Part shown: positions 6,057 through 39,663 of the stretch, piece by piece | Layout: every line of letters begins with the position of its first letter | How positions within the stretch are numbered: the stretch's first letter is position 1 | From: an uncultured Thermoprotei archaeon | Lineage (GTDB): Archaea > Thermoproteota > Thermoprotei > Thermofilales > B15-G2 | Assembly (NCBI GenBank): GCA_965367815.1 | Contig: CBDUKN010000017.1 | Coordinates: 1-62,871 of the forward strand | Direction: 5' to 3' | Length of the DNA: 62,871 nucleotides | Notes under the pieces: model-generated | Told to the model about the DNA's origin: nothing | The model's database searches: none | What the model saw: the letters and a program-made list of their open reading frames with translations, nothing else | Position numbers and translations under genes: made by a program

Positions 6057-6130
6057 ATACTGTTATAAGTGTATACTGTTATAAATGTTTAAAGGTTATC
6101 TTCTTATGTTAGCTTAGATAATAGTTACGG

Positions 6131-19829: not shown

Positions 19830-20640
19830 AAGATAAAGCTACTGCACCATAGGAGCTATATAGAGAAATTCAAAGGCAGGAAGTGGTACGAGGTAACCGT
19901 AAGTATCGACAAACATGGAAGAATATGGGTAAGTATACCGTTTAGATGGGAGTACAATCCATTCAAGCCTAAGAAAATAGTCTCACTTGACATAAACCTT
20001 AAGAAAATAGTAGTCTATAATGGCAGAAGTATTAGAAGAATAGATACTAGGTTTACAGAAGCCTTGTATCTCAAGCACCTCGCCGAGAATATTCAGAAAA
20101 AACACAGATATGCGTGGAGGAGAAACGAAAAGTGGCTGAGCATTATTAGAGCGCTCCATAGGAGGAGCAGGAATATAGTAGTTGACTTGTCTCGTAAATT
20201 CGCTAAATACATCGTGTTAAAAGCTAGGAAGACAAAAAGCGCTATAGTATTAGAAGACCTCGATAAGCTATGGTTTAGTGCTTCACAGAAATCCTCTAGC
20301 CTAGCAGACAAACTCTCAAGATTTGCCTATAGGAAGCTACAGCTAGCGATAGTAGCTAAAGCGATAGAGTATAACGTACCAATAGTCTTCGTGAATCCTA
20401 GAGGGACATCAACTATATGTCCTAGATGCGGAGCTAAGTTAACTTATAACCACAGACTAGCGATTTGCAGAAACTGCGGCTTCGTAGCTGATAGAGACAC
20501 AGTTGGAGCAATAAACATCTACTTTAAAGCAATAGAATATTTAGCCCCATGCCTCGGGTCATGGGGCATCCACTCGATGACGAATGAAACCTGACTGAAG
20601 AGTGAGCTACCTAAAAATGAACCGATGACCAAACATATAA
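19830..20640 (+). mobile_element. tnpB: 5'-truncated IS200/IS605-type element: partial tnpB (frame open from ~19830 to 20594) plus putative right end
   Basis: RuvC motifs SLDIN, VLEDL and DRDTVGAINI; CPRCG/CRNCG zinc ribbon; N-terminus missing. Confidence 0.85.
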
Positions 20641-21260: not shown

Positions 21261-21518
21261 GTGAGAGTTATTGTTGTGTTTGATGTTCCGGTAGGCTATG
21301 ATTGGCTCCGCGACCGTTTAAGAGAAAAACTCAAAGACTTTGGAGGAACTTTTCTTCAGCGAAGTGTCTATGAAATTGACTGTGACTGGAAGACATTTAA
21401 TAAACTTTATAAAGTAGTTGATAGCGTTTTAAGAAAAGGTGCTGGCCGAGTAGACTTTATTTTCCCTTGCGCCAAGTGCTACAAGAACATAAGAATTATA
21501 GGCGGTGAACTTGATTAG
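21261..21518 (+). CDS. cas2: CRISPR-associated endoribonuclease Cas2
   Basis: VIVVFDV..LKDFG..LQRSVYE; 85 aa; C-terminal CxxC. Confidence 0.9.
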   Translation: MRVIVVFDVPVGYDWLRDRLREKLKDFGGTFLQRSVYEIDCDWKTFNKLYKVVDSVLRKGAGRVDFIFPCAKCYKNIRIIGGELD

Positions 21519-22182
21519 AGGCTATTCTCTCCAACTAAAATACAGTTTTTTCACAGTCACAGTATCTGAAGTAGTCTCTTATCTCTACTGCCCGCGCAAA
21601 CTACTCCTCATACGTACACTAGGCCTAAAAGACAAGCCGCTTGAAGAAACACTAGAGGGAGTACAGGCACACATCATATACGAGAAACTAACACTATTCT
21701 ACATGAAAACAAAAGAGAGCAAAGACTACTGGAAACTAGTTAGCGAACTCGAAGAAAAAGAAAATTTCCCCGAAATAAGAAAACTAGCAGAATTCAGATA
21801 CAGCAACCCCTTCACCTCAGCCCAAGTAGAAGTACCGGTCGAAATACAGGGAATAAAAGGAAGAATAGATATAATTGAAGACAAAACACCAATTGAAATA
21901 AAGTACAGAAATAAACTACTCGAAAGAGACGTAGTACAAGTAACATGGTATACACTACTAGCAGAAGCAGCCTTAAACAAAAACATAGACTACGCTTACA
22001 TAGACCTCCTCAAAATCCCAAAAAGAATAAAAATACACATAGACAACGAAAAAAGAATAAAAGCACTAAAAACTAGAGAAAAATGCATAAAAACAATAAT
22101 ACAAAACAACTACACATTAAAAAGAAAAAACTGCAGAAAATGCCCACTTCGGAAAGAATGCAAACTACTAAACCTAACCTAA
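21505..22182 (+). CDS. cas4: CRISPR-associated Cas4 nuclease
   Basis: YCPR, GRIDII..EIK, QVTWY and C-terminal CxxCxxxxxC Fe-S motif. Confidence 0.9.
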   Translation: MNLIRGYSLQLKYSFFTVTVSEVVSYLYCPRKLLLIRTLGLKDKPLEETLEGVQAHIIYEKLTLFYMKTKESKDYWKLVSELEEKENFPEIRKLAEFRYSNPFTSAQVEVPVEIQGIKGRIDIIEDKTPIEIKYRNKLLERDVVQVTWYTLLAEAALNKNIDYAYIDLLKIPKRIKIHIDNEKRIKALKTREKCIKTIIQNNYTLKRKNCRKCPLRKECKLLNLT

Positions 22183-22307: not shown

Positions 22308-22485
22308 AAAACTTATTTATTTTTATTTGAATATTATAGTTAAGTTTATATATTTGTTTTTTACTCCCTTATAAAGGGGTTTATAAATATTATATAGGTA
22401 TGAAATAGTGGGGGCGTTAGAAATATATTATGTTGAAGAGCTAGAATAACTGAAAAGAAAACAAACAACACTGTACCAAAACCCA
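22308..22485 (+). promoter_or_regulatory. CRISPR leader copy with imperfect palindrome (22363-22380) and TATA-like boxes
   Basis: Homologous to the sequences at 24059, 32086, 36529, 35413 and 39697; directly precedes a repeat. Confidence 0.8.
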
Positions 22486-22761
22486 CAATAATTTAAAAAT
22501 CTCTTAAAGAGAATAGAAAGTAATATAGAGCTCAAAGTATACTTAGAGCTTGAGAAAATCCTAGCAATAATTTAAAAATCTCTTAAAGAGAATAGAAAGA
22601 AAAATGTGCTATCGAATTTTATTTCTTCATTAAGAAACGGTACCAATAATTTAAAAATCTCTAGAAAAGAACAAGAAAATTAGTAGTGCTCCCATTCTAA
22701 CAGCGAAGCCTCTAAGCCCGTTCTTTCAGTGTTAATTTAAATCTCTAAAGGAGAATAGAAG
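22486..22761 (+). CRISPR. Short array: 2 intact repeats CAATAATTTAAAAATCTCTTAAAGAGAATAGAAAG plus 2 degenerate
   Basis: Repeats at 22486, 22565, 22644 and ~22733; first two spacers are 44 bp. Confidence 0.9.
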
Positions 22762-23075
22762 AAAAGGCTGATAGAGTATAAAGTAGTGTGTTTTATTACT
22801 GTTTTTTATTCTTTTTTGTTTTATTAGAGGATTCTTCTTCGTTTTCTTTTAGAAGTTCTCCTATGATTATGCTTTCTTGAACAGATAGTCCTGCGGTTAG
22901 GCCTGCTAGGAATCCTACTTTAAAGTCTCTTTTGTATTTTTTTGTCTGGCATAGGTGTCTCGTGTATATTTATTTACTTGGAAAGTATATTGTTGTCGTA
23001 TATTGAGATAAATGTGGATTTAGTGGGGCTGAGTTTGTTTTGGTTTGATGTTGCATTAAGTTTATGAAGTAGTCT

Positions 23076-23823: not shown

Positions 23824-24058
23824 TCAAAATAAATTAAGCATAAAAACAACACATACAATAAGATAAATATATACAACCTCAATAACTGCATCTAGCTTCT
23901 TCATCTCAAGCAACTTTAGCTCCTCTTAACTTATTAATCACTATTTACCTATATAAAACTAAAGTAATCAGTAAATAGCAAACAAATAATTAACTGAAAC
24001 AAACTTTTACAAAAAACACAGTACTATCCCTCCTAAAATCACATTAAAGTAAAAAACG

Positions 24059-24267
24059 AAACTTATTTATTTTTATTTGAATATTATAGTTAAGTTTATA
24101 TATTTGTTTTTTACTCCCTTATAAAGGAGTTTAAAAATATTTAACAGATATAACAATAATTTAAAAATCTCTTAAAGGGAATAGAAAGTTTTAAAATCTA
24201 TGTTTAGATGTCTTGCTGCAAAGTTTCTTAATTTTCTTTATTAAATTAAAATCTTTAAAGGGAGATT
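24059..24267 (+). CRISPR. Internally deleted leader, repeat (24154-24188), spacer and degenerate repeat
   Basis: 24059-24128 is identical to 22309-22378; repeat CAATAATTTAAAAATCTCTTAAAGGGAATAGAAAG. Confidence 0.8.
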
Positions 24268-24507
24268 TATATGATTGCTTCGATTATTTTGTGTTTTAAG
24301 GTGTTTCAGTTAAAGGGTTTTGCTAGTTGTTTGAGAAAAGTTTAAATTTCTTTGTGTGAAGTTAGAGAGGAGTTTTAGTATACTATGTGGAGGAGGGTGT
24401 GGAGTTTTGTTTTATTTTTGAGAGATAGTTTGGGGTGTTTTACGGGTTTGTTGAGAAAAATTTTTAGTGCTTTTTGGTTTAATTTGTTTAGGGTTTGTGT
24501 CAAGTTT

Positions 24508-24777
24508 ATGGGTTTTGTTGAGGCTAGAGCTGTAGTGGAGGAGATTTTGCGTAGTGATTATGGACGTAGGTGCTTATTTTATGCTGGTTATGATTATTTT
24601 AGGGAAGTTCTTGTGGGGAAGGGTGCTAGGGTGGTGTATGTTGAGGAGAGTAATGGGGAGGATGATTATCCGAGCGAGTTTTGTGTTTTATTGTTTAGAG
24701 ATAGGAGGGTGGAGTTGTTTTGGAAGTTTAAGGTAGTGGAGTTGACTGAGGTTTCTTGGATAAAGGTTTCTAGGTGA
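24508..24777 (+). CDS. Hypothetical protein (likely start ATG 24508 rather than 24385)
   Basis: Open frame; upstream extension is low-complexity G/T sequence. Confidence 0.5.
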   Translation: MGFVEARAVVEEILRSDYGRRCLFYAGYDYFREVLVGKGARVVYVEESNGEDDYPSEFCVLLFRDRRVELFWKFKVVELTEVSWIKVSR

Positions 24778-24783
24778 TCTAGA

Positions 24784-25149
24784 GTGAGATACGTACATAA
24801 TATGAGGTTTATAGGGAGGGAGGTGAGGAGGCTTGAGTCTGGTGAGGAAGTTGAGTTTGGTGTCTTGGAGTATAGTGATTTTCGTGGACGTAGGTGCCGT
24901 GTTTTAGTTACGAGAGTGTGGTTTGAGAATAGTTTAATTTACCTTGAGTTCTTTTCGTGTAATAAGAGGCTTCTTGTTAAGGCTGTGAAGTATTTTGGGG
25001 AGTTTTTTGGAGCATTTTTCTTTATGAAGAAAAAGCTCGTGCAATATAGTGGGGGCTATGTGTACGCGTTTTACAATACGCAGGTTGTTTTAGAGAGAGC
25101 GCTTGAAGTATTTGAAGGAGATAGAGTGCGGCTGCTGAACTGTGGTTAA
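24784..25149 (+). CDS. Hypothetical protein
   Basis: 121-aa ORF preceded by AGGTGA SD. Confidence 0.6.
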   Translation: MRYVHNMRFIGREVRRLESGEEVEFGVLEYSDFRGRRCRVLVTRVWFENSLIYLEFFSCNKRLLVKAVKYFGEFFGAFFFMKKKLVQYSGGYVYAFYNTQVVLERALEVFEGDRVRLLNCG

Positions 25150-25243: not shown

Positions 25244-25381
25244 ATGTTATTTAATGTAAAGGTGACTGTTAGAGTAGTTTTGGATAAAAAGCTTGTGGAT
25301 AGGATTAGAGAAATTAGTAAAGGGAGGCTTTTTGATGAAGTAGTGGCTGAGCTTTTATCGAAGGCTTTAGAGAGCGTGTAA
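25244..25381 (+). CDS. Small ribbon-helix-helix-like protein (45 aa; not in ORF track)
   Basis: MLFNVKVTVRVVLDKKLVDRIREISKGRLFDEVVAELLSKALESV; TTTATATA box upstream. Confidence 0.55.
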   Translation: MLFNVKVTVRVVLDKKLVDRIREISKGRLFDEVVAELLSKALESV

Positions 25382-26398
25382 TTTGTTGCTGGCTGTGAGC
25401 TGAAGTATTTTTGTTGATAGTTTTTGTTTGAATATTTTTGTGTTTAGTAGTGTTTTGCATGTTTTGTCTGCGTACTCTATTAGTAGTGGGAAGCCTTTTG
25501 CCGAGAGTTGCGAGTCAGCTATTATTGTCGCCATTGCCTTTTCTAGTCTATCTTCGTGGCATTCTGCTAGGTAAGGTGATTGGTGTGTTTTGTATACGCA
25601 GAGGACTATTTCTTCTCCATGGGTTTTTAGGAATTCTTCTACTATTGGGCGGTCTCTGCGCGGGAGTCCTCTTGGCTTTATTAGTTTGGATAGTGGTCCT
25701 AATACTATGTATTCTCCTGGCTCTAGTAGTAGTCCTAGGCTTATTGCTCTGAGTCTCGATGTTCTCGTGATTACTGATGAGAGTTTCTTTGACTCTACTA
25801 TTTTCTGTGATAGTTCTAGGCATTTTTCTAGTAGTCCTGGTGTTTTTAGGCGTAGACGGAATTCAAGTGGTAGTAGTGGTCCGTGTACCAGTGCTTCTTG
25901 GTGTGGTGTCTGTAGAGCGAAGTGTCTTTCGTAGTAGAGCATTATTGTTTTATAGAGTAGTCTTGTCTGTGCTCTAGTTTCTTCTATTTTCTTTAAGTAC
26001 TCTGCTATGTTTTCTGCTTCTCCTTCAATAAAGTCTTGGTCTGCTACGTATGTTGTGTAAGTGACTGCTGTCTGAGTGTAGGATATTATTACTACTCCTA
26101 TTCGGCAGCGCGCGCCTGTTGGTGTAGGGTATATTGATAGTGTTCCGTCTACTCCACATACTTTTCCTTCGACTAGTCTTTTTAATGCTTCTTTTAGTTC
26201 TTTTTCTGAAGGCTTTTTAAGCCTGTTTTCTAGTAGCCTTTTTTCTTCAACATATTTTCTTAGTTTTCTTTTTAGCTCTACGTAGTGTTTTGCTGCTTCT
26301 TCTGTTAGCTTATTTTCTATTTTCATGTACTCGTGGTATTGCATCCACTTAATCGACTTTACTACTTCTCTGAAGTCTTTGAGCAGTACTTCTTCCAC
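25367..26398 (-). CDS. nurA: NurA-family nuclease
   Basis: CGVDGT, HGPL and GFPLLIEYAD motifs; adjacent to herA. Confidence 0.85.
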   Translation of the reverse strand: MEEVLLKDFREVVKSIKWMQYHEYMKIENKLTEEAAKHYVELKRKLRKYVEEKRLLENRLKKPSEKELKEALKRLVEGKVCGVDGTLSIYPTPTGARCRIGVVIISYTQTAVTYTTYVADQDFIEGEAENIAEYLKKIEETRAQTRLLYKTIMLYYERHFALQTPHQEALVHGPLLPLEFRLRLKTPGLLEKCLELSQKIVESKKLSSVITRTSRLRAISLGLLLEPGEYIVLGPLSKLIKPRGLPRRDRPIVEEFLKTHGEEIVLCVYKTHQSPYLAECHEDRLEKAMATIIADSQLSAKGFPLLIEYADKTCKTLLNTKIFKQKLSTKILQLTASNKLHAL

Positions 26399-26448
26399 AA
26401 ATAGAATACGCAGTAGTGCTTAATTAGCTTAATTTACTATCTATTAAT

Positions 26449-28071
26449 GTGGAAGAGAAAGTAGTAGGTTTCACGGCATTTGATAAGAGGAGAGACTCTT
26501 CTAACAGTATTCTAGCCTATGTGCCTGAAGAAAAAGCCGATGCTCTGGCTCGAGGAAAATATGTTAAAATAGTTTCAGACTACGGAGGTAGTACTAGGGT
26601 TTTTGTAGGCAGAGTGACTGGAGGTCCTTTTTACGAGACCGAGGGTGTTGACGTGGCTTCGGCTGAAGTAGACGTGATGGTGTCTCATCCTCTTATTGAA
26701 CGTGTGCCCCAGTACCGTGCTGTATATGAGGTAGAGGTTTTAGGAGAAGTAGAGGATGCTGTGAAAATGGTTTTGAAGTCTTCTTATACTAGACCTAGGC
26801 CTAAGTCAAAAGTTTTTCTCTTGTCGCCTCTAGAGCTCTCGAAGTACTTTAGGTTCGAGTCTCGTGGAATGCTTCTTGGCCACCTTATGCACTATAAAGG
26901 CGTTAAAGTCTACTTAGATCCCGGCGACATTAATGTTCTTCCGAGGAACTTGGGTATATTTGGTACTGTTGGGAGCGGTAAGACTAATACTGCTCAAGTT
27001 CTTATAGAAGAGGCTTCTAGGTGTGGGTGGGCTGTCGTAGTAATTGATGTTGAGGGCGAGTACGTGTACATGGATCAGCCTAACGACAGTGATAAAATGA
27101 TCCGTATTCTCGAGAGCGAATATAAGCTTGAGCCTGAGGGTCTCAGAGACTTCGGGGTGTATGTGCCTGAGCCCTCGGAGTACTGTGTTAGGAGAGACGC
27201 AGATAGTTTTTCGCTCTCTTTCTACGACTTAACTCTTCCTCTTGTCTTAGAGATTATTAGGGCTAATGAGCCTCAGGAAAGAAGGCTTAGCCGTGTCTGG
27301 AGAAAGCTTGAGGAAAGTGTTTTGAAAGAAGAAGAGCCAGCTGATGCTTTCGAGGAATTTATTGGCGCTAGAACTGAGGCTAAGAAAGGATTTACTCTCA
27401 GAGAGCTTATTGAGCGCGTAGAGCAGCTGGCTGAGCAAGCTAAAGTTAGGAGACAGACCTACGACGCTACGAGCTATGAGGCGATAGCGAGTAAGCTTGA
27501 GCGCCTTGAGGCGACAGGGCTCTTTGATAAAGACCGCATTTTGTCTGTGGATGAGCTTCTTGTTCCAGGTAGAGTTTCTGTAATAGATGTGAGCGATGCA
27601 AGCGATACTGTCAAGAATATTGTTATTAGCTGGCTTTTGCTCAAAATATTTTCAGCTAAATTGAGGAATCCCAGGGCTCCTAAAACACTATTTATTATAG
27701 AAGAGGCTCATACTTTTGTCTCGAAGGAGAAAGCTGAAGCTATGCGCACTACACTCGACATGCTTAAAACTATAGCTAGGAGAGGTAGGAAAAGGTGGCT
27801 TTCGCTCTGCTTTATATCACAGCAACCAGGCCACTTGCCTACCGAGATCTTTGAGCTCTGCAATACTAGGATAGTGCACCGCCTTATGAGCGAGTATAAT
27901 TTAAGGGCTCTTAGAGAAACTACGACAGGTGTTGCTAGAGAAGTCTGGAGGACTGTGCCGGGGTTCCATGTAGGCGAGGCTTTATTGGCGTCGCCTCAGC
28001 TGCCTCACCCAGTTTTAATGAAAGTGAGACCTGCTAAAACAATGAGAGCTCGCTTAACAGAGCTACGCTAG
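26449..28071 (+). CDS. herA: HerA-family ATPase/helicase
   Basis: HAS-barrel-like N-terminus, GTVGSGKT, DVEGEY, IEEAH, ARRGRK, SQQP. Confidence 0.92.
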   Translation: MEEKVVGFTAFDKRRDSSNSILAYVPEEKADALARGKYVKIVSDYGGSTRVFVGRVTGGPFYETEGVDVASAEVDVMVSHPLIERVPQYRAVYEVEVLGEVEDAVKMVLKSSYTRPRPKSKVFLLSPLELSKYFRFESRGMLLGHLMHYKGVKVYLDPGDINVLPRNLGIFGTVGSGKTNTAQVLIEEASRCGWAVVVIDVEGEYVYMDQPNDSDKMIRILESEYKLEPEGLRDFGVYVPEPSEYCVRRDADSFSLSFYDLTLPLVLEIIRANEPQERRLSRVWRKLEESVLKEEEPADAFEEFIGARTEAKKGFTLRELIERVEQLAEQAKVRRQTYDATSYEAIASKLERLEATGLFDKDRILSVDELLVPGRVSVIDVSDASDTVKNIVISWLLLKIFSAKLRNPRAPKTLFIIEEAHTFVSKEKAEAMRTTLDMLKTIARRGRKRWLSLCFISQQPGHLPTEIFELCNTRIVHRLMSEYNLRALRETTTGVAREVWRTVPGFHVGEALLASPQLPHPVLMKVRPAKTMRARLTELR

Positions 28072-28886
28072 CTCTCTATGTAGGGTAAAAGTATTTTAAT
28101 CCACTTCTTCAGTTTTACTTTCTTTTGGTCTTCTATTGTAACTAGTCTTCTTTCAGAAAGCTCTTTGAGGACGTTTTCTTCTATTTCGTCTGCAGGAAGG
28201 AATCCGTGTAGTTTTTCTCGCTCATATATTTTCTTGAGTTCATTTAAGTATACTGCTTTAACTGTGAGGGGGATTGAGGGTAATTCGACGTGTTCTCTGA
28301 AGTTTTCGTGAATGTAGTAGACTGAGTCTACATTGAGGAGGAAAGCAGCTATTATTAGGAAAGAGGTTTCGGGCTTGAATCCTGCTGTAGCGCAGACATA
28401 TACTTTGTGGCCTGCTTTCTTGTACTCGCTTATAAGCTTACAGGCTGTGTCAAGGAGACTCATTAAGCCTTCTTCGAATACCACGCCAAAGCCTTTAACT
28501 ACTTTGACTTCAGTGTCTATACCTGCTTTTTCCGACAAGTACTTCTTGACTATGGATGAGCAGAAATAGCCTACTCCTGTGTCTGTTGAAAGAAGTAGTA
28601 CTTTGTCTACAAGCCCATTTTCTAGGAAGTATTTGAGTGAGTTTAGTTCAGCGCTCATAGTATATGGGTCTTTAACTACCATAGTGTAGACTTCGTTAAA
28701 TACTCTCGATGTTATAGAGACGTGCTCTTTCAGTTCAAGGTCTTCAGGGGACCCGGGTGTAGCTAACTTAGCTTTAATTAAAGTGTTTTTAATATCTTCG
28801 GATATATCTTTTTTCAGAGCGTTCGCTACAATAGATGTGCCTGTAGTGACTAAGTGTACGTGCATAGTTACTTTATGCTCTAGCAC
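28068..28886 (-). CDS. APE2256/SSO1393-family CARF + wHTH protein (Crn1-type ring nuclease candidate)
   Basis: TTGTS, SAELNSL, STDT, ATAGFKPE and YIHE motifs. Confidence 0.85.
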   Translation of the reverse strand: MLEHKVTMHVHLVTTGTSIVANALKKDISEDIKNTLIKAKLATPGSPEDLELKEHVSITSRVFNEVYTMVVKDPYTMSAELNSLKYFLENGLVDKVLLLSTDTGVGYFCSSIVKKYLSEKAGIDTEVKVVKGFGVVFEEGLMSLLDTACKLISEYKKAGHKVYVCATAGFKPETSFLIIAAFLLNVDSVYYIHENFREHVELPSIPLTVKAVYLNELKKIYEREKLHGFLPADEIEENVLKELSERRLVTIEDQKKVKLKKWIKILLPYIES

Positions 28887-28910
28887 TTAAAATATTTTGT
28901 GAAAACCTGG

Positions 28911-30191
28911 TTACTGGGCACTGTTTTCGAAAAACAGGCTTTTTCTACTTTTCTCTAAAATCTTTTCGACATCCCAGACTTCTATGTCTTCTGGCTCTTT
29001 TTCGAGAACACTTGTCTCAGGAACTATTAGTATTTTTTGAATGTTTTTGAATTTACCGAGTTTCTCTTCGACTGTTTTTACTTCTTTTCGCGGTACATAG
29101 TTTTTCCATTTAACTTCACCAACTAATTTAAGTCTCTTAAACTCTAAGAGAGCTATATCTACTTCAAGCTCTCTTTCTTCAATTATTTGATACTGTAAAC
29201 CAAGGATCTTCGATAAAAGATTTCTAAAAAACTGTTCTACGTGTCTGGGAAGCTTCTCGTTTACTACTCTTCTTATAAATTTTTTCGGTATATCTAGCTC
29301 TGTATAAGAGTACTTGCTTTCAAGATAGTAGTGTAAATCTAGTAGAGGCGACTTGTGGAAATACCTGTACTTTTTCTTATTGAATACTTTTATTTTCTCT
29401 AAAATACCCATTTCCGTTAAAATATTTAAGTATTTTTGTAGAATACCTGGATTATCTTTAGCTAAAAGTCCTCTAGAGAAAAGCAGAGAAGATATTTCCG
29501 TACTAATGTTTTTTCCATCTGCTACAGCTTTTAAAACGCCCTCGTAAATATTTGTAAGTTCTCTTTCTTCTTCTCTAAACACTTCTCCTACGAGCTCTTT
29601 TAGTATTAGCTTGCCGTCGTAGAGAAAGTCTGCAAGAAAGTCTCTAATGTTTCCTCCTCTGTAAAAGGGAATAAGCATTACTTCTCTGAGGTACACTGAG
29701 CTCTCAACTAGCTCTTTCCCCTGGAAATCTTTCGACAACTCTACTAGAATTTCTCTCTCGTCGACTAAATCTATTTTAACGGGCTTTACTAGTCCTAAGA
29801 GAGGCTGACCTCTACCTATTATTTTCTTCGCTAGCCAGAGAGTCGACGTTATCAGAATTAAATTACCTTTAATTCCTAATGCGTGTAGAAAATCTAGGAA
29901 ACTTTCGGGAAGTCTATGAAACTCGTCTACAACTATTGTTTTATCTTCAATAATTTCTCTAAGTATTTTAATAAATTCTCTATATGTATAGAATTCTCCC
30001 GACTCTTTATCTAAAACTGTTCCATCTCTATTGACGAAGAAAAACTTATCGTAGGGAATAAAGTTTTCTACTAAAAAGGTTTTCCCAGTTTTCCTTCTAC
30101 CATAGACCATTACCCAAGGCAAACTCCTTCTAATCCTCGAGATTTCTATTCTTCTGGGAATTATTCTCACGGGAATAATGAATATGAACAT
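28911..30191 (-). CDS. Archaeal ATPase (ATPase_2) with wHTH and C-terminal PD-(D/E)XK-like domain
   Basis: GRRKTGKT, VVDEFH, EVDI..GEVKW. Confidence 0.88.
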   Translation of the reverse strand: MFIFIIPVRIIPRRIEISRIRRSLPWVMVYGRRKTGKTFLVENFIPYDKFFFVNRDGTVLDKESGEFYTYREFIKILREIIEDKTIVVDEFHRLPESFLDFLHALGIKGNLILITSTLWLAKKIIGRGQPLLGLVKPVKIDLVDEREILVELSKDFQGKELVESSVYLREVMLIPFYRGGNIRDFLADFLYDGKLILKELVGEVFREEERELTNIYEGVLKAVADGKNISTEISSLLFSRGLLAKDNPGILQKYLNILTEMGILEKIKVFNKKKYRYFHKSPLLDLHYYLESKYSYTELDIPKKFIRRVVNEKLPRHVEQFFRNLLSKILGLQYQIIEERELEVDIALLEFKRLKLVGEVKWKNYVPRKEVKTVEEKLGKFKNIQKILIVPETSVLEKEPEDIEVWDVEKILEKSRKSLFFENSAQ

Positions 30192-30276
30192 AATATATAA
30201 CTGCTTCTCTCTTTAGCAAACTGAGCTCTGGTTATTCGGGGGAAAGTTTAATGAAGTAAAATGCTGTATAGAAAAT

Positions 30277-30786
30277 GTGGAGAATATTTTGAGTATGCTT
30301 ATTGAAAGAAAATGCATACCTTTAAGTGAACTAGATGAGAAGACTGTAAGAAAACTGACTAGAAGCGGTTTTGCTAAAGTAGGTGGAGGCTTTCTTTACC
30401 CTACAGAAGCTCTTCTCGAAGCTTTTTCTAATGAGAAAATATATGGAAAAAAAGGATTAGTGCTCCTAAGCCCTAATGGAGCCTTTTTCACTAAAAGTAA
30501 ATTCGGTAAAAGTTTTCTCCGCAAATACTTTATTGTAGTAGAAGGCTGGCTTGAAGGAGAGTCTCCTACACTACTTCCTCCAGCATCCGCTCTTGTACTC
30601 GAAGCAGAAGAATCTTTTCTCAAAGGAAACTATGGACTAGCTAGAGCTAAGCTCCTCCAGGCAGCAGAACTAGCTAGAAATAAAGCACTTAAAGAGAAAG
30701 TAGAGAAAACACTGTCTTCAAGTGACCTCAAAGAAGTTTTAGAAGAATTTAAAAAGAGGCTGGGACTACGAGAGGAACAATTCTAA
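30277..30786 (+). CDS. Unknown protein with wHTH-like N-terminus and helical C-terminus; candidate Argonaute partner
   Basis: 169-aa ORF overlapping the start of the Ago reading frame. Confidence 0.65.
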   Translation: MENILSMLIERKCIPLSELDEKTVRKLTRSGFAKVGGGFLYPTEALLEAFSNEKIYGKKGLVLLSPNGAFFTKSKFGKSFLRKYFIVVEGWLEGESPTLLPPASALVLEAEESFLKGNYGLARAKLLQAAELARNKALKEKVEKTLSSSDLKEVLEEFKKRLGLREEQF

Positions 30787-31973
30787 GAAAACCTGTACTA
30801 AAGTTCCGTGAAGGCACTGCCCTAACTCCACTAGAAGGATTCCGCTTAGGTTTCAAGCCATGGAGCGGGCCAAGCCAAGTAACACTAACAGTCGTAGCCC
30901 TCAGAAAAGTATCTACTGAAGCAAAAAAACTAGTCGAGAGAACAGTCTACGGCTACAAATGGTTCAAAGGACTAGAAGAGTGGTTCGACATAGAAGTACC
31001 CGAAATAAACTTCATAGAAGTCTCTAGCACTAAAGAGTACTTCGAGAAAATAGAAGAAATACCCTACACTACAGTAGTGCTCACAGTAATACCTGACGAA
31101 ATGAGCGTAGACTACGACGAAGACCCCTACATGCCTCTCAAACAAGAGTACGCGAGCAGAGGAATACCGAGCCAAATGATAAACTTCTCTACATGCAGAA
31201 ACTTGAGAGAAAGCCCAGTAGTACTCTATAACATCGCCTTAAATATCTATGCTAAAGCAGGAGGAATACCCTGGATATTAGCAGAACCTCTCCAAACAGA
31301 CGCAGCAATAGGACTAGATACAGGCGGAGGAGCAGCAGCTGCAACACTCCTCTACAACTGGACAAACCTAAATTTCACTTGGGAAACAGAAGCAAATCCA
31401 TCAGTAAGAGAAGTACTCTCCCTAGAAACTCTACTAAACAAACTAATAGAGAAAATAGCTGAAGAAAACAAGCCCCCATCAAACATAGTATTCCACAAAG
31501 AAGGACTATTCCACCCAAAAGAAATACAGCTCTTACGGAAACTAGTAGAAGACTGGAAAACCCAAGGACTAGTAGAAGAAAACTTCCAGTACACTGTAGT
31601 AGAGGTCAAGAAAAAATGCGTACCAAGAATACTCCGAGAACAAGGACCCCGCTACTACAACCCAGTCAAAGGAACATGCCTAATACTAGACAAATACAAA
31701 GCACTAGTAACTACAACAGGCTACCCAGACAAAATACTCCACACAGCCCCAGTAAAACCACTAATAGTCGAAATAGCAGACACAAGCAACTGGGACACAG
31801 CAAACATACTACAGTATGCAAAACAAGTCTACTGGCTATCAGAACTACACTGGGGATCAGGAATATTCACCTCAAAATACCCCATAACAACACTATACGC
31901 ACACAGAATAATAGCATTCTGGACCCAAGGAATACACCCAGCAGAACAAGAAAACACACTATGGTTCCTATAA
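30753..31973 (+). CDS. ago: Prokaryotic Argonaute, MID-PIWI only (~400 aa); start codon unresolved
   Basis: Frame open from 30753. ILRKPVLKF..PLEG N-terminus; MID Y-K-Q-K (YMPLK, SQMI, YAKAGG); PIWI GLD, HKEG, YPITTLYAH; C-terminal LWFL. Confidence 0.92.
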   Translation, partial: KEAGTTRGTILRKPVLKFREGTALTPLEGFRLGFKPWSGPSQVTLTVVALRKVSTEAKKLVERTVYGYKWFKGLEEWFDIEVPEINFIEVSSTKEYFEKIEEIPYTTVVLTVIPDEMSVDYDEDPYMPLKQEYASRGIPSQMINFSTCRNLRESPVVLYNIALNIYAKAGGIPWILAEPLQTDAAIGLDTGGGAAAATLLYNWTNLNFTWETEANPSVREVLSLETLLNKLIEKIAEENKPPSNIVFHKEGLFHPKEIQLLRKLVEDWKTQGLVEENFQYTVVEVKKKCVPRILREQGPRYYNPVKGTCLILDKYKALVTTTGYPDKILHTAPVKPLIVEIADTSNWDTANILQYAKQVYWLSELHWGSGIFTSKYPITTLYAHRIIAFWTQGIHPAEQENTLWFL

Positions 31974-32085
31974 ACCACAAAACAGTCAAAGAAAACAGTA
32001 AAAACAAACAAAACCAGTAAATATAATTAAAAGTCACCAAACCCTCCTCACAATACCCCATAAAACAATCCAAACCAAAAAAACT

Positions 32086-32263
32086 AAAACTTATTTAATC
32101 TTATTTAAATACTACAGTTAAACTTATATATTTGTTTTTTACTCCTTTATAAAGGAGTTTAAAAATATTTAACAGACATAAAATAATGAAAACACTAAAA
32201 ATATATTACACTAAAGATACAGAATAAGTGAAAAGAGAACAATCTAACCCAACCAACGATCCT
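32086..32263 (+). promoter_or_regulatory. CRISPR leader with perfect 18-bp palindrome ACTCCTTTATAAAGGAGT (32141-32158)
   Basis: Homologous to the other leader copies; precedes the array. Confidence 0.85.
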
Positions 32264-32880
32264 CAATTAATTAAAAATCTCTTAAAGAGAATAGAAAGTA
32301 GGCTTAAGTATGAGTGCTCTTATGTTACTGTGGGAGATATTAAATACAATTAATTAAATCTCAAAAAGAGAATAGAAAGTCCACGCTCCCCATTTCCTCT
32401 ACCCTCTCTTTCACCCAGTCGACTTAATTAATTAAATCTCAAAAAGAGAATAGAAAGGACTAGGAAGATGCACTGTTATCAGATACATAACACTCTTCCT
32501 ACCATTCTTACGCCTTAATTAATTAAATCTCAAAAAGAGAATAGAAAGAGAATTTTGTTCCAAGTATACAAGTGCCATCAGGCTTTGGCCAAATAACTTA
32601 ATTAATTAAATCTCAAAAAGAGAATAGAAAGAAAAGAAATTATCACTAGAAAGTCGCTGGGAGAAACACATATATCTTCTTAATTAATTAAATCTCAAAA
32701 AGAGAATAGAAAGTTGGAATAAAGTATGTTGGAGGAAGTTCTCTGAAAAACACTGTGAGCCTAGGCTTTCTCTTAATTAATTAAATCTCAAAAAGAGAAT
32801 AGAAAGTACGCCCAGTTCTTGAATATCTTCATCGGTTTCAATACTGCATCTTAATTAATTAAATCTCAAAAGAGAATGAC
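32264..32880 (+). CRISPR. CRISPR array: 8 repeats (consensus CTTAATTAATTAAATCTCAAAAAGAGAATAGAAAG), 7 spacers of 43-58 bp
   Basis: Repeats at 32264, 32347, 32423, 32514, 32597, 32679, 32772 and 32850 (degenerate). Confidence 0.96.
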
Positions 32881-35412: not shown

Positions 35413-35631
35413 AAAATCTATTTAATTTATTCAAACACCATAGTTGGTTTATTCGATTGTTTCTTTATAAATATTATATAGACATAAAATAATTGAAAAG
35501 AGAAAAATTCAATATAACTCATACTATAATTAATTGAAAATCTCTAGAGAAAAATAAAGGAATAGGAACTGCACTCTGAATCTCTTGGCTACGTAATTAA
35601 TTTAAAAATTTATTAAAAAGAGAATAGAGAG
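35413..35631 (+). CRISPR. Decayed leader plus two degenerate repeats (35528-35559, 35595-35631) around one spacer
   Basis: Leader fragments TTTATAAATATTATATAGACATAAAATAATTGAA; repeat-like AATTAATT.AAAATCTCT and AAAGAGAATAGAGAG. Confidence 0.65.
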
Positions 35632-35751
35632 TTTAGCTATTTGTATATAATTTTATGTAGAAGAGGGTTCTCTAAGGGTTATTGCGTTGCTGTGTTTTTA
35701 GTTAATTGCTTGTGTTACGTTAGTTATAAATATTGTGCTATGTATATATGA

Positions 35752-36528: not shown

Positions 36529-36817
36529 AAAACTTATTTAATTTTATTTAAAGACTACAGTAAAGTTTATATATTTGTTTTTTACTCCTTTATAAACAGG
36601 TTTATAAATATTACATAGACATAAAATAATTGAAGCGACAAAATATATTAATACTAAAAACACAGAATATTCGAAAAGAGCATAAACAATGCCAATTCAC
36701 GACCCAAATTAATTTAAAAATCTCTTAAAGAGAATAGAAAGGGTCGCATACTTCTTCATAGCAGAGAACCACCTTGCCTTCTAATTAATTTAAAAATCTC
36801 TTAAAGAGAATAGAAAG
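36529..36817 (+). CRISPR. Leader (36529-36706) plus mini-array: two identical repeats AATTAATTTAAAAATCTCTTAAAGAGAATAGAAAG around a 41-bp spacer
   Basis: Repeats at 36707-36741 and 36783-36817. Confidence 0.9.
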
Positions 36818-36832
36818 TTAATATAATATTCT

Positions 36833-37338: not shown

Positions 37339-38802
37339 GTGGATAGTGTAGGAGACGGTATTTCTAGGTATTTGAGCTGGATTAGTTCTTGGAAGCAGGG
37401 TAAAGGTATTTATGGCGGTCTCCACGTCCATTCTTGCTGGAAAGTCTCTAGTGTTCTTGAGAAAAAGTATCAGGGAGTTACTGTTTCAGAGTACTTTGGT
37501 CTTATTAGAGGCTTCCTCAACTTATACAGTAAAACGGGCTACGAGTATTTTCTACTAGAAGCTAAAGCTATGTGTGATGCCCTATGTAGTCTTTTAGGCT
37601 CTGATGGCTGTTTTGAGCACAGTGTATATGAATTTGAGCCTGGTAGAGGAGGCTGTATACATAATGCTTTAGCCGACCTTGCTCTCCTCTCTTTCGCCGA
37701 AGCTCTAGTAGATGAGAACAAAGACCCTGATCCCTACTTGAAGACTGTTGAAAAGAACTTTGAGTGGTTTATGAGCTACTGGTGGAAGAGAGGTAATGCT
37801 TGGCTGAAGAATCCTAGTTTTCCTTGCTGGTGCGGTGTAACTAATCAGGATCTTGCTGTATGTTGGGCTATGGCCCTCTACGGCGAGCTCAAAGACAGGA
37901 AGTACTGGGAAGAGTATGGTTCGCGTGTCGCCTACTGGTATCTCGAGAACTATTTTCTGCCAGAATACAGGTGTTTTCTTAGAGGCGATGAACCCGAGTT
38001 CCCCGAACCCGCTCCCTACCACGGGCTTATTTCCTATGAGCTAGTCGAGCTCTATAAGCTTACAGGAGACTCGCTATTTCTTAAAAGAGCACTCGATGTC
38101 ATAGAATACTTGTATGAAAACTCCTGGATCGACAAGTATGGCTTAAGGAGAATTCACCACAATATAGACTTGAAGACAGGAAGAGTTTCATTAAAGCCTT
38201 CTCTCGTTACTCAAGGCTCGCTTATCTGCGCACTTGAGGAACTAGAAGATTTAGGTGTAGATAGGTTTAAGGAGTTTAAAGAAGAGCTGGTAAAGACTCT
38301 GCTTTTCTATCAGTCTGGTAGAGGCTACTTCCGTAACTCAACTGACTTCAATAACTTCTTTGATATTGTTTCGAGGATGTGTCCAGGCGAATTTGAAGCG
38401 CTGACCACTATATGGAGGGGAGGAAGTCTTCAACTTGAATCAGAGTATGCTTTGAGTATAGATTTTTCAGGAAAATACATTTGGTTTGACTCTGACTGCT
38501 GTTGGGAGCTCCGCGGAGACAATAGAGCAGTATATGGGCTTAAGCATATGAGTAACGGTATTTTCTCAGGAAGTATTTTCGGGAACAAAGTTCAGGTCTC
38601 TATGAAAAACAACTTTATTGTGCTTGAGCTAGACTTGCCTAAATACTCTTCTGTGTGCTTAGACCATGTCGTCGATCAGAACGTGTTGCTGAGAGTCAAG
38701 TTAACTAGTCCACTGAAGCTAGGAATTAAGCTGTGGGATGGGCGGAGACTGTGCCTTGATTTAAGTAAAGGTGTACACGAAATTTCTTCCAGTAGCTTGT
38801 AG
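37339..38802 (+). CDS. (alpha/alpha)6-barrel protein (glycoside hydrolase/epimerase-like)
   Basis: Repeated helical LY..TG...L..A motifs; aromatic-rich. Confidence 0.55.
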   Translation: MDSVGDGISRYLSWISSWKQGKGIYGGLHVHSCWKVSSVLEKKYQGVTVSEYFGLIRGFLNLYSKTGYEYFLLEAKAMCDALCSLLGSDGCFEHSVYEFEPGRGGCIHNALADLALLSFAEALVDENKDPDPYLKTVEKNFEWFMSYWWKRGNAWLKNPSFPCWCGVTNQDLAVCWAMALYGELKDRKYWEEYGSRVAYWYLENYFLPEYRCFLRGDEPEFPEPAPYHGLISYELVELYKLTGDSLFLKRALDVIEYLYENSWIDKYGLRRIHHNIDLKTGRVSLKPSLVTQGSLICALEELEDLGVDRFKEFKEELVKTLLFYQSGRGYFRNSTDFNNFFDIVSRMCPGEFEALTTIWRGGSLQLESEYALSIDFSGKYIWFDSDCCWELRGDNRAVYGLKHMSNGIFSGSIFGNKVQVSMKNNFIVLELDLPKYSSVCLDHVVDQNVLLRVKLTSPLKLGIKLWDGRRLCLDLSKGVHEISSSSL

Positions 38803-38835: not shown

Positions 38836-39663
38836 GTGTCGAGTATTGTCGAATACAATCTTAGTTTTATTGTAGACACGAAAGTTCCTTTAACTGCTTT
38901 CTCAGGCGTATTCGTTTACAGAATGTTTCTTACACTTATTTCTTCAATAGACTCTATTTTAGCAGAAGAACTCCACGGCTCAAAGAAATTTAAGCCTATT
39001 TCATGCTACCCAGTCTACATCAACAACCGATTAATTAAACACGGAGTCCTTGTACCAAATAGAGTCTACTCAACTAAAGTCATTATACTGTCAGAAGATG
39101 TTAACTTGAAGTTCGCTAGAGCACTACTCGACACCTGCGTAGAATCAATAGATTTACCTGCTTGCCGCGTTAAAGTCAAAAATATTTCACTTAAAATAAC
39201 TTCATTTGACCAAATACTAGAAGAAGCCTCTAAAACCGAGATAAATGATGAATTCACAATAGTCTTTCAAACACCATGCCAGTTAGGCAAATTAACTAAG
39301 TCTAAAAAGAAGCCCATATTCAGGCTATTCCCAGACTCCTACTACTTACTCCGAAACATCTACAACTACTGGAACGCATACTCAAACACAGTCTTCACAG
39401 AAGACTTCCTAGAATGGGTCAACGAAAACATATTCGAGAAAAAATACAAACTATCAACAGAGCCAGTATACCTAGGAGAGGGAAGAATAACAGTAGGCTT
39501 CACAGGAAAATGCACATACAGCATAGCAGACAGTAACAAAGAATACCTAAAAAAGCTAACAGCACTCCTAAACTTCGCACAACACGTAGGCATAGGAAAA
39601 CACCGCAGCATAGGCATGGGAAGAATTAGATGGAGTTTTCTGGAAAATAAAAATCAATCGTAA
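38836..39663 (+). CDS. cas6: CRISPR endoribonuclease Cas6
   Basis: LH..KP, FQTP, GFTG and C-terminal G-loop GIGKHRSIGMG. Confidence 0.92.
   Translation: MSSIVEYNLSFIVDTKVPLTAFSGVFVYRMFLTLISSIDSILAEELHGSKKFKPISCYPVYINNRLIKHGVLVPNRVYSTKVIILSEDVNLKFARALLDTCVESIDLPACRVKVKNISLKITSFDQILEEASKTEINDEFTIVFQTPCQLGKLTKSKKKPIFRLFPDSYYLLRNIYNYWNAYSNTVFTEDFLEWVNENIFEKKYKLSTEPVYLGEGRITVGFTGKCTYSIADSNKEYLKKLTALLNFAQHVGIGKHRSIGMGRIRWSFLENKNQS

Follow-up and report, generated by a model that had tools for sequence, protein, structure and literature searches.

A putative split long-type Argonaute overlapping an orphan gene in a CRISPR locus of a Thermoprotei archaeon

The window, by which we mean the whole analysed stretch of 62,871 nucleotides from an uncultured Thermoprotei archaeon, encodes a MID-PIWI Argonaute (Ago; 30768..31973, + strand, 401 aa if read from an ACG codon; Piwi PF02171, E 4.6e-17) as the second gene of an overlapping pair whose first gene, p169 (30277..30786, + strand, 169 aa), is a lineage-specific orphan. 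The explanation we prefer, and to which we give about an even chance, is that the two genes are translationally coupled and form a cassette, a split long-type prokaryotic Argonaute (pAgo) in which p169 replaces the N-PAZ half and which is tied to CRISPR adaptation. The Ago belongs to a family linked to cas genes, both genes of the pair are under purifying selection, and a canonical start codon is missing from the beginning of the Ago frame. In hyperthermophilic archaea, genes of the split family regularly form part of the loci for CRISPR adaptation.

A split Argonaute family and its cas genes

Sequence matches place the Ago in a split long-type family, as its MID-PIWI half, and not among the classical short pAgos. 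Its best solved match in the PDB is the long-A protein CbAgo (6qzk, E 5.2e-27), compared with 4.9e-12 for AfAgo and 2e-4 to 0.01 for short-pAgo chains, and it matches the PADLOC pAgo model at 2.9e-62. An earlier sequence-only reading had called it a short Argonaute, which is right for the architecture but not for the type. The 5'-phosphate pocket, Y-K-Q-K (Y126, K130, Q141, K168), is invariant in 22/22 sequences. Because this is the canonical 5'-phosphate type of MID pocket, the proposal that guides derive from Cas6-cut crRNA is disfavoured; cas6 itself (38836..39663, + strand; CRISPR_Cas6, 2.5e-13) is a context gene. The catalytic columns are filled by D189, E250, and H384. Across the 22 sequences, the first column holds D (17), E (4), or S (1), the third E (12) or D (10), and the fourth H in 15. 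The activity of the window Ago is uncertain because its third catalytic residue is E instead of D and its glutamate-finger column holds R, with an E one position later. Its dN/dS is 0.26–0.28 over three lineages separated by a dS of 0.67.

In relatives, the upstream partner is a protein of about 420 aa whose profile matches TtAgo residues 88–214 (E 0.003). On the 666-position PADLOC PIWI model, this partner covers positions 6–285 and the Ago positions 292–655. The two halves (N-L1-PAZ-type, ~420 aa, and MID-PIWI, ~400 aa) are adjacent or flank cas1-cas2-cas1', the latter in the order NPAZ-Cas1-Cas2-Cas1'-Ago in L089, L091, L119, and L120; cas4, a CARF7 gene, cas6, an array, or a pair of HerA and NurA-like genes is frequently found alongside. 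A Cas4-family gene lies tail-to-tail with Ago in L002/L095, L092, L093, L096, and L104, and arrays adjoin Ago or N-PAZ in the window, L087–89, L002, L091, and L003. The wider family spans three archaeal phyla (Thermoproteota, Baldrarchaeota, and Jordarchaeales), and 26 of its 29 loci contain cas genes, counts that overstate independence because many loci are near-duplicates from a few vent metagenomes. The three exceptions are contigs of 1.7–2.9 kb, too small to hold more than the pair.

The N-PAZ half is present in 21/29 loci; the eight others are the three p169 loci and five loci cut at that side. It has no match in the window's genome, which is 99.4% complete, and has thus been lost from the whole genome in this lineage. 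The Agos paired with p169 form a single clade (95/99), which lies among clades that carry N-PAZ. The idea of a new short-pAgo system therefore survives as a conserved p169-Ago pair, but not as an isolated system: the pair looks like a reduced, derived member of a split family whose usual partner is N-PAZ.

The orphan partner and the start of the Argonaute

The gene of 169 aa was correctly read as unrecognisable, since it has no match in Pfam, PADLOC, NCBIfam, or PHROGs. Only two homologues were found in 5.8 billion clusters, and a profile search of 1.84 billion proteins returned a single one; among the 41 genomes of the order, p169 occurs in the window's own genome only. The homologues share 86% (L082) and 54% (L083) identity with it, dN/dS is 0.19 and 0.15, and the pair is kept in the three lineages down to 72% Ago identity. 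In these lineages, p169 occupies the place of N-PAZ, and its overlap with the beginning of Ago is an ancestral trait that has been retained. Its sequence reveals no APAZ, Aga1, or AfAgo-N homologue, no match to PDB chains, and no similarity to Ago partners in the PDB or PADLOC. The earlier concern that the partner is a known APAZ or Aga1 homologue is thus not borne out by sequence, but p169 could be a structural equivalent without sequence similarity. SiAga1, too, is described as having no such similarity (PMC11788926).

A possible but unlikely alternative is that p169 is a small DNA-binding regulator or an independent operon protein, and that Ago acts alone, e.g., as a homodimer like stand-alone AfAgo. 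It would fit a basic protein (pI 9.2, without a transmembrane segment) that resembles neither N-PAZ halves (hhalign probability 0.2%) nor known Ago partners, and a TrmB-like wHTH gene directly follows Ago in other family members. The length of p169 also counts against an N-lobe role: the protein leaves no room for a full N-L1-L2 and is shorter than the known N-lobe substitutes AfAgo-N (250 aa, PMC10954474) and SiAga1 (at least 237 residues, PMC11788926). However, p169 sits exactly at the N-PAZ position of the relatives with the stop/start overlap kept, it co-varies with Ago in all three lineages and is found nowhere else, and it is unrelated to the wHTH267 family.

The open Ago frame (30753–31973, 406 codons) directly follows a TAA (30750–30752) and contains no ATG, GTG, or TTG before codon 109 (GTG 31077). 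In the three p169 lineages, the first canonical start is not reached until codons 109, 53, and 142, and the start-less part evolves with a dN/dS of 0.26. The frame overlaps p169 by 34 nt (30753..30786, + strand), in the −1 frame relative to it. Within the last p169 codons lies a conserved ACG (30768) that aligns with the start codon of the relatives, where ATG, GTG, or TTG stands in each of 18 loci without p169; the Ago profile match in the window's genome also begins there. The ACG is preceded at 12 nt by a Shine-Dalgarno-like (SD) GAGG (30756..30759, + strand), and both are invariant across the three lineages. This distance suits the SD spacing of the genome: over 1486 of its long ORFs, GAGG is most frequent at −14 to −11 from the start codon, and GGTG shows a 4.9-fold enrichment. 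To our knowledge, ACG is not an established archaeal start codon. Contigs from four metagenome runs of four studies show no indel or change at the junction.

Programmed −1 frameshifting in the overlap, e.g., at AAA-AAG (30751–30756), would instead yield a p169-Ago fusion of about 565 aa next to free p169 as the main product, as in dnaX or the phage G/GT genes. We think this rather improbable. The position and openness of the Ago frame would suit it, the window and L082 have T AAA AAG, at which Lys-tRNA slippage is possible, and a 21-nt stretch of the overlap does not vary among the three lineages. Where residues are identical, the codon is identical too in 7/8 cases inside the overlap against 39/82 outside. 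The five codons before the ACG are invariant everywhere, including p169 third positions, which agrees with dual coding that sets in as soon as the overlap begins; this invariance rests on three sequences. Yet L083 has the non-slippery AAA AGG at the site, no stable RNA structure lies downstream in either of two lineages (z +1.2 and −1.0), no fused p169-Piwi protein appeared among the 1.84 billion proteins, and in the relatives the Ago start codon, preceded by an SD, falls exactly on the ACG position.

Neighbouring genes and the link to adaptation

Csx1, TnpB, HEPN-MNT, and PIN genes, together with several mini-arrays, make the window a dense island. As the sequence-only reading described, the block around the pair lies between two leader copies. 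The upstream, leader-like one (24058..24270, + strand) is 61% identical to the reference copy of this family (D1) and comes with a single CRISPR repeat (24154–24194; repeat copies form families D2–D4). The reference copy (32086..32298, + strand) begins about 110 nt past the Ago stop and is followed by an array (32348..32880, + strand) of seven full repeats (32348–32872) and a degenerate last copy, spaced by 78–93 nt. The nearest adaptation genes are cas2 (21261–21518, + strand; 5e-11) and cas4 (21505–22182, + strand; 4e-10), the latter 8.6 kb upstream of the Ago start; both belong to the same families (clusters 2 and 4) as the genes beside Ago in relatives. No cas1 was found in the window, and the only one of the genome is on another contig (C8), so the link to adaptation is weaker here than in the relatives.

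The HerA, CARF, ATPase, 169-aa, and Piwi frames were all found where that reading had placed them. Of the proposed divergent nurA/herA pair, HerA stands (26449..28071, + strand; DUF87 1.2e-25, HerA_C 1.3e-10, PADLOC HerA 4e-28, and "Type III coevolved" HerA 8e-24), but the 343-aa protein divergent from it (25367..26398, − strand) matches nothing in Pfam, PADLOC, or NCBIfam. Elsewhere in the genome the Pfam NurA model does give matches, but it misses this ORF even at E ≤ 10, and it touches only 1 of 27 family members (E 0.013). None of the 44 homologues has a name or a Pfam domain, and the family profile has no match in the PDB. We thus regard the protein as a member of a HerA-linked family and an unverified candidate NurA. 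The APE2256-type CARF protein was rightly named (CARF7; 28068..28886, − strand; PF09651 9.7e-35, PADLOC CARF7 5.6e-66). Its role may be that of a ring nuclease or of a CARF regulator; its match to a ring-nuclease model (6.9e-24) lies far below the model's cut-off. Its gene adjoins the pair in L083 and is near Ago in L002/L095, L093, and L084. The suggested link of Ago to cyclic oligoadenylate signalling had this adjacency as its sole basis, which we count against it. The supposed ATPase-nuclease (28911..30191, − strand, 426 aa) is an AAA_14 ATPase, but its nuclease part amounts to a weak DUF234-like C-terminus (E 0.072); it is a variable neighbour, beside p169 in the window/L081 and L082 and absent in L083. 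The absence of a membrane effector holds in terms of hydropathy: none of the eight block proteins has a clear transmembrane segment (19-aa maximum below 1.6 in seven and 1.61 in CARF7).

Chance clustering, with a stand-alone defence Ago in a CRISPR island and the HerA/NurA-like pair and CARF as ordinary type III accessories, seems very unlikely to us. Cas-HerA/Cas-NurA and CARF are indeed known as crenarchaeal CRISPR accessories without Ago (as described in PMC3973734 and PMC6546367), the island is dense, the gene order around Ago differs between lineages, and the ATPase is not conserved. Against it stand the cas linkage over three phyla and the Ago halves flanking cas1-cas2-cas1' in four lineages. 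The HerA/NurA-like pair adjoins the Ago family in four independent lineages (window, L002, L091, and L119), being co-directional with Ago across a 32-nt gap in L119. All four genomes of the order with a full-length NurA-like gene have Ago on the contig of that gene, at a distance of 32 nt to 9.3 kb, while Cas1 occurs in 26/41. Neighbourhood comparison thus largely favours conserved co-occurrence. That Ago is a decaying relic, no longer made, is hardly credible: the lost N-PAZ and start codon, the patchy family (6/41 genomes of the order), and the fragmented NurA-like and HerA genes of the sister genome G001 would fit, but the frame is open and constrained in three lineages, start-less part included, neither the pocket nor the acidic catalytic residues have been lost, the ACG and SD are invariant, and the junction is fixed in metagenomes.

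Under the preferred cassette reading, Ago would be translated from the ACG via the GAGG at −12, coupled to p169 translation. p169 would bind Ago and stand in for the missing N-lobe, or else serve as an accessory subunit. The pair would bind guides with a 5' phosphate and probably remains able to cut, its catalytic positions being D-E-E-H. It may work together with the HerA/NurA-like resection pair next to it and with Cas4/Cas1-Cas2, either by turning invader DNA that Ago has recognised into prespacers or by loading their degradation products as guides. Because its relatives are built into spacer-capturing genes, the family may permit testing whether Argonaute and CRISPR memory cooperate.

Comparison with known systems

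The Cas-HerA/Cas-NurA pair shares a HerA ATPase and a partner of about 350 aa inside cas loci; the words Argonaute and PIWI do not occur in the text of PMC3973734, nor Ago and PIWI in that of PMC6546367, and in the window the HerA partner does not match the NurA model. APACE1, a long-A pAgo with the Cas4-family nuclease ACE1 (PMC12094033), resembles the tail-to-tail Cas4 of the relatives, but the ACE clades are described as bacterial and not CRISPR-linked, whereas Cas4 here comes with Cas1/Cas2. SiAgo-Aga1-Aga2 of Sulfolobus islandicus likewise combines a MID-PIWI protein from an archaeon and a small partner, which is reported to lack sequence similarity to N-L1-L2 or APAZ; the catalytic tetrad is missing from SiAgo, which passes its signal to a membrane effector (PMC11788926), whereas the window Ago keeps acidic residues among neighbours without a clear transmembrane segment. 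CbAgo and other long-A DNA-guided nucleases share the 5'-phosphate pocket and RNase-H-type active site, but the window protein lacks N, L1, PAZ, and L2 and has E, not D, as third catalytic residue.

Among split pAgos, a concept for which several independent origins are described (PMC10954474), fAfAgo of Archaeoglobus fulgidus (AfAgo and AfAgo-N, split long-B) likewise has a MID-PIWI-only protein grouping with long pAgos and a small partner gene directly upstream with overlapping ORFs. It differs in a catalytically dead long-B Ago, an N-L1-L2 partner, and a downstream Aga2-like effector, with no cas linkage in that report. In contrast, the window Ago has acidic catalytic positions, its relatives have a ~420-aa partner with a region matching N to PAZ, and its own partner is an unrelated orphan. 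The MpAgo-type long-A pAgos share the location inside CRISPR-cas loci beside cas1/cas2, and an interplay with spacer acquisition has been proposed for them, though never shown according to the passages concerned (PMC6299218, PMC5995195). No MpAgo-sized chain was among the 34 PDB matches of the window Ago. MpAgo-like proteins are single-chain, with a MID-OH pocket and 5'-OH RNA guides, whereas the family described here is split and has the canonical Y-K-Q-K pocket.

The block and its CRISPR surroundings

The Argonaute frame (Ago; PF02171, 4.6e-17) ends at 31973, about 110 nt before a 213-nt leader copy (32086-32298) that is followed by an array of 7 repeats, and a second leader-like copy with a single repeat, 61% identical to the first, stands at 24058-24270, so that the block lies between leader copies. 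It covers 25.2-32.9 kb and comprises, from left to right, a 343-aa ORF without family match (25367-26398, minus strand; hereafter the NurA-like ORF), the gene of a HerA ATPase divergent from it (26449-28071; DUF87 1.2e-25, HerA_C 1.3e-10), the gene of a protein predicted to carry an APE2256-type CARF domain (CARF7; 28068-28886, minus strand; PF09651 9.7e-35, PADLOC CARF7 5.6e-66), an AAA_14 ATPase of 426 aa whose tail weakly resembles DUF234 (28911-30191, minus strand), and, on the plus strand, the 169-aa orphan ORF p169 (30277-30786), which has no match in Pfam, PADLOC, NCBIfam or PHROGs, followed by Ago. The sequence-only reading had described this block largely correctly: herA, the APE2256-type CARF gene, the 169-aa gene without known family, and a MID-PIWI Argonaute close to the leader and array are all present. 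Its "ATPase-nuclease" is an ATPase, and the nuclease part comes down to the weak DUF234-like tail. The CARF7 protein scores 84 bits against the NCBIfam ring-nuclease model, for which the cut-off is 600, and the suggested link of Ago to cOA signalling has the adjacent CARF gene as its sole basis.

The surrounding island is one of CRISPR and defence genes, with Csx1, a probable TnpB fragment (a 176-aa ORF at 20064-20594 that matches the Cas12f1-like/TnpB TNB domain only, 3.7e-17), cas2-cas4 (21261-22182), HEPN-MNT, PIN, and cas6 (at 38836). At the left end of the window stands a separate, large CRISPR array (89-1782) built on another repeat sequence, in 26 copies. Mini-arrays of 1-4 repeats each, with leader-like copies 61-79% identical, are scattered at 22308-22766, 24058-24194, 35528-35632, and 36529-36823 among toxin-antitoxin-like genes (DUF3368, HEPN-MNT, PIN). 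In L081, a locus whose Ago is 100% identical to that of the window, the leader is followed by at least 13 repeats (5483-7099) with a different repeat word, against 7 in the window (32348-32872), which indicates that array content varies between samples of one organism. The 487-aa protein encoded beside cas6 (37339-38802, plus strand) has no family match; a close homologue (L083:1-897, minus strand; 2.6e-145) adjoins a CARF7-p169-Ago group in the locus L083, and gene order is therefore rearranged between the two lineages.

A split Argonaute family among cas genes

The window's Ago aligns with residues 439-731 of CbAgo, beginning at the MID domain; it has about 400 aa and is without N and PAZ domains. 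Its Pfam match covers residues 14-279 of a 298-aa ORF, and the presence of both a PIWI (RNase H-like) domain and a MID pocket places the protein in the Argonaute/PIWI superfamily. The best solved match is the long-A nuclease CbAgo (6qzk, 5.2e-27), with AfAgo at 4.9e-12 and short-pAgo chains at 2e-4 to 0.01. Because of these E-values and of the split N-terminal half found in relatives, we assign it to the long type, and long pAgos are probably its closest full-length relatives.

The active site was read from an alignment of 22 family sequences. Catalytic column 1 holds D (17 sequences), E (4), or S (1). An acidic residue fills column 3 throughout, E in 12 sequences and D in 10, and column 4 has H in 15, the remaining 7 carrying N, S, D, or K. 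The window's protein has D189, E250 (instead of D), and H384, with R219 in the glutamate-finger column and E220 beside it. This site differs from the degenerate one of classical short pAgos, and the protein may be active. Searches of Pfam and PADLOC found no APAZ partner with a TIR, SIR2, or nuclease effector in p169 or the neighbouring genes, and the block's 8 proteins show no clear transmembrane segment, in agreement with the earlier statement that no TIR, SIR2, APAZ, or membrane effector is recognisable. The protein thus appears short-pAgo-like in its MID-PIWI-only architecture, and not in having a substituted catalytic site or an effector partner. Residues Y126, K130, Q141, and K168 are invariant in 22/22 sequences and aligned to the matching CbAgo segment; we take them to be those of the MID 5'-end pocket, in line with the assignment reported in Ryazansky 2018. 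The idea that guides come from Cas6-cut crRNA is disfavoured by this canonical 5'-phosphate pocket, since Cas6-cut crRNAs carry a 5'-OH.

We examined 29 loci of the family: 24 from metagenomes, 4 from genomes, and the window itself. Near-duplicates are numerous among them, and by our estimate the whole set represents about 19 distinct lineages. The named hosts are MAGs of Thermoproteota, Baldrarchaeota, and Jordarchaeales. A gene of about 420 aa is present in 21 loci, where it either immediately precedes Ago, with overlapping stop and start codons, or stands at a distance of a few genes. Of the 8 remaining loci, three carry p169 and five are truncated on that side. Its profile matches TtAgo residues 88-214 (E 0.003), and along the 666 positions of the PADLOC PIWI model it covers 6-285 (1.3e-18) and Ago 292-655. 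We conclude from both matches that this gene encodes the N-terminal half, from N to PAZ, of an Argonaute divided over two genes; it is hereafter called N-PAZ.

The family is tightly linked to cas genes, which occur in 26 of the 29 loci; the other three contigs, 1.7-2.9 kb long, are too short to hold further genes. The neighbours that recur include a canonical Cas1 (7e-50), a second Cas1 that is short and divergent (Cas1'; 5.5e-6), two Cas2, Cas6, a TrmB-like wHTH protein, Cas4 placed tail-to-tail with Ago, the window's CARF7 family, and type III Cas10 (L003, L096). Four loci (L089, L091, L119, L120) share the order Cas2 | N-PAZ, Cas1 | Cas2, Cas1' | Ago, and in L002/L095 and L093 the two Argonaute halves converge around Cas4-CARF7-Cas1-Cas2-Cas1'. 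Arrays adjoin Ago or N-PAZ in the window, L087-89, L002, L091, and L003. The adaptation modules linked to Ago in L089, L091, L119, L120, L002, and L093 hold two Cas1 paralogues and two Cas2 per locus (e.g., L119:2000-6413); Cas1' has 259-280 aa, and its match to the Cas1 model is confined to the first ~100 positions at the N-terminus. The family of a 350-aa protein of the window (18135-19187, minus strand; no Pfam match, PADLOC CARF_PIN-like 3.9e-11) recurs by Cas2-N-PAZ-Ago in L102 and L105.

HerA and the NurA-like protein form a further companion of the family. The same two families lie near Ago in four lineages (the window, L002, L091, and L119); in L119, the three genes point the same way in the order Ago, NurA-like, HerA, and 32 nt separate Ago from the next gene. 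Of the order's 41 genomes, 6 have the Ago family, 6 the NurA-like family, and 26 Cas1. Wherever the NurA-like gene is full-length (four genomes), its contig also carries Ago, at a distance of 32 nt, 1.2, 4.4, or 9.3 kb, and two more genomes have NurA-like fragments only, on short contigs. The four genomes span four different families, related genomes being non-independent samples, and the co-occurrence strongly suggests, without proving, a genuine association. The linkage of herA and its neighbour to Ago proposed by the sequence-only reading is accordingly real at the level of gene neighbourhoods; the identification of that neighbour as nurA was not confirmed. The ORF has no Pfam match, PF09376 being silent at E<=10 despite matching three other places in the genome; its 44 homologues are all unnamed and without Pfam domain; 1 of 27 members matches NurA, at E 0.013; and the family profile found nothing relevant in the PDB. 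Its invariant residues (D84-G85, E157, D295, D311) are compatible with a nuclease, no more. Passages of two papers describe a Cas-HerA/Cas-NurA accessory pair in crenarchaeal CRISPR loci (PMC3973734, PMC6546367), and text searches returned no mention of Argonaute/PIWI in the first or of Ago/PIWI in the second.

p169 and the start of the Argonaute frame

The window's genome (2.45 Mb, 99.4% complete) has one Ago. It holds no match to the N-PAZ half anywhere, no Cas1', and no wHTH267 (a winged-helix protein family encoded beside Ago in relatives), and its sole Cas1 is on another contig; near Ago there are only the array, cas2, cas4, cas6, and CARF genes. The p169-Ago pair is kept in L082 and L083, and the three loci are monophyletic (95/99) within an unresolved set of N-PAZ-bearing clades. 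Rather than the free-standing new short-pAgo system that had been proposed, the locus is a reduced, unusual member of a split Argonaute family linked to CRISPR adaptation, so that the interpretation first given to the block was right in part.

Homologues of p169 are few: a cluster search gave 2 matches (93% and 85% identity), an exhaustive profile search 1, and among the order's 41 genomes only the window's own encodes it. The protein is basic (pI 9.2) and soluble, and its dN/dS of 0.15-0.19 indicates purifying selection. It resembles neither N-PAZ (hhalign probability 0.2%) nor wHTH267 (0.5%). PDB chains gave no significant match; the p169 profile yields only 3toc_A (E 0.12, residues 5-76), a statistically insignificant match to a chain labelled "putative uncharacterized protein", presumably Csn2, a type II-A adaptation protein. 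TPR-like leads for the p169 homologue P0033 scored 0.79-0.83, within the range of shuffled proteins, and were rejected. No known APAZ or Aga1 homologue was thus recognised by sequence (Pfam, PADLOC, PDB). SiAga1, according to the part of PMC11788926 that concerns it, shares the fold of APAZ and N-L1-L2 although its sequence shows no similarity to theirs; since it is recognisable by fold alone, the orphan p169 may still be a structural equivalent. With 169 aa it is short for a full N-L1-L2; AfAgo-N is given as 250 aa in a passage of PMC10954474.

The Ago frame is open from 30753 to 31973 (406 codons). It starts inside the final 11 codons of p169, from which it is shifted by -1, and contains no ATG, GTG, or TTG before the GTG at 31077, codon 109. 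Homologues nevertheless have about 400 aa and span 97-99% of the 406 residues, and residues 13-141 have a dN/dS of 0.26, against 0.28 for the rest (window versus L083): the part without a start codon is clearly coding. In 18/18 loci outside the window's clade, an ATG, GTG, or TTG stands 8-11 codons upstream of a conserved P-V-L-K/R-F motif. The window has an ACG (30768) at this place, where the match of the own-genome profile also begins. The overlap, the ACG, and an upstream ORF of 169 or 167 aa recur in L082 (Ago 93% identical) and L083 (72%), which have no canonical Ago start before codons 53 and 142, respectively, and a 21-nt stretch at the junction is invariant in all three. The junction is found without indel or change in contigs from four runs of four studies. 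Among the sequencing runs listed as containing this DNA, none is recorded as RNA.

We favour initiation at the ACG, directed by a Shine-Dalgarno (SD) motif and coupled to the translation of p169, over a -1 frameshift within the overlap that would fuse p169 to Ago. A GAGG lies 12 nt upstream of the ACG. A search with two conserved motifs found no 16S rRNA 3' end in the 37-contig assembly, and SD spacing was taken from counts of upstream motifs in 1486 long ORFs of the genome instead of from the anti-SD sequence; in these, GAGG is most frequent 14 to 11 nt upstream of the start codon, and GGTG shows a 4.9-fold enrichment. This spacing and the starts of the relatives argue for the ACG. The less favoured fusion would account for the invariance of the five codons before the ACG as well, and for the 7/8 identical codons within the overlap against 39/82 elsewhere. 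However, its sole plausible slip site, AAA-AAG, reads AAA-AGG in L083, a profile search of 1.84 billion representatives found no fused p169-Piwi protein, and the RNA downstream of the junction shows no stable structure (z +1.2 for the window, -1.0 for L083). Slippage during transcription of the A-run was also considered and rejected, since the run counts just 5 residues in the window and 4 in L083.

The region around p169-Ago is evolving fast. In L083, CARF7 directly adjoins p169 and the ATPase that intervenes in the window is absent. The genome of a sister genus (G001, 85% complete) has one contig with N-PAZ-Cas1-Cas1' (L121, G001:C171) and another (L122, G001:C173) on which the window ORFs 24385-24777 and 24784-25149 have orthologues of 97-98% identity; past these two small ORFs only fragments of NurA-like and HerA follow, a sign that the region has recently decayed or been rearranged within the genus. 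The window's lineage holds a conserved, selected p169-Ago cassette that comes from a cas-embedded split Argonaute, has a pocket of the 5'-phosphate type, and lacks a canonical start.

Possible working and relation to known systems

The question at stake is whether Argonaute, an innate, guide-directed defence, and CRISPR adaptation, a memory, cooperate. We suggest the following working. An AT-rich element at 30243-30252 that we read as TATA-like lies some 25-30 nt upstream of the GTG of p169; p169 would be translated first, from that GTG, and ribosomes would then initiate Ago at the ACG, aided by the GAGG. As a putative subunit, p169 may bind the MID-PIWI protein as an accessory that replaces the lost N-lobe. 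The pair would bind 5'-phosphorylated small nucleic acids and recognise, perhaps cut, invader DNA, and HerA/NurA-like with Cas4 and Cas1-Cas2 would either turn the resulting ends into prespacers or supply guides. More ambitiously, the split Argonaute could belong, as a dedicated component, to an enlarged machinery of CRISPR adaptation (N-PAZ/MID-PIWI, Cas1, Cas1', two Cas2, and optionally Cas4 and HerA/NurA-like). In it, guided recognition or cutting of invader DNA would select what HerA/NurA-like and Cas4 trim and Cas1-Cas2 integrate, and new spacers would be gained by a priming-like route driven by Argonaute; p169 would, in the window's lineage, be a new small subunit in place of the N-lobe, and the ACG would keep Ago scarce and strictly coupled to p169. 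That this more ambitious reading holds as a whole seems to us rather unlikely.

We found no description of this split family in the literature, and supplementary tables (Ryazansky 2018 Table S3, Dataset 1 of the Asgard Ago paper) may include members. MpAgo was found between cas1 and cas2, and since then the question has stood; the relevant passage of a FEMS review (PMC5995195) still calls cooperation of Argonaute with adaptation undemonstrated. The family is a second, independent, and much tighter case than MpAgo, with halves interleaved with cas1-cas2-cas1' in three archaeal phyla, a canonical 5'-phosphate pocket, catalytic positions conserved as acidic, and HerA/NurA-like as its specific companion. 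A natural experiment is provided by the window, where N-PAZ is gone, the orphan p169 stands in its place, and the start is ACG; it can reveal the minimal accessory of a MID-PIWI module and how its dosage is set. Of interest are the tight interleaving with cas1/cas2, the specific association with HerA/NurA-like, an orphan in place of the usual partner, and the conservation of ACG as the start.

Among known systems, the SiAgo system has an Aga1 partner and the membrane effector Aga2; here, no clear transmembrane protein is found among the 8, and p169 is without a sequence match in the PDB. Split long pAgos have a separate gene for the N-terminal half, as do the relatives (21/29 loci) but not the window. 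With the MpAgo-like, CRISPR-associated pAgos the family shares, at family level, the cas1/cas2 setting; these have a MID-OH pocket, whereas the family has the canonical Y-K-Q-K (22/22). The Ago locus is a variation on both split pAgos (AfAgo) and CRISPR-linked pAgos (MpAgo).
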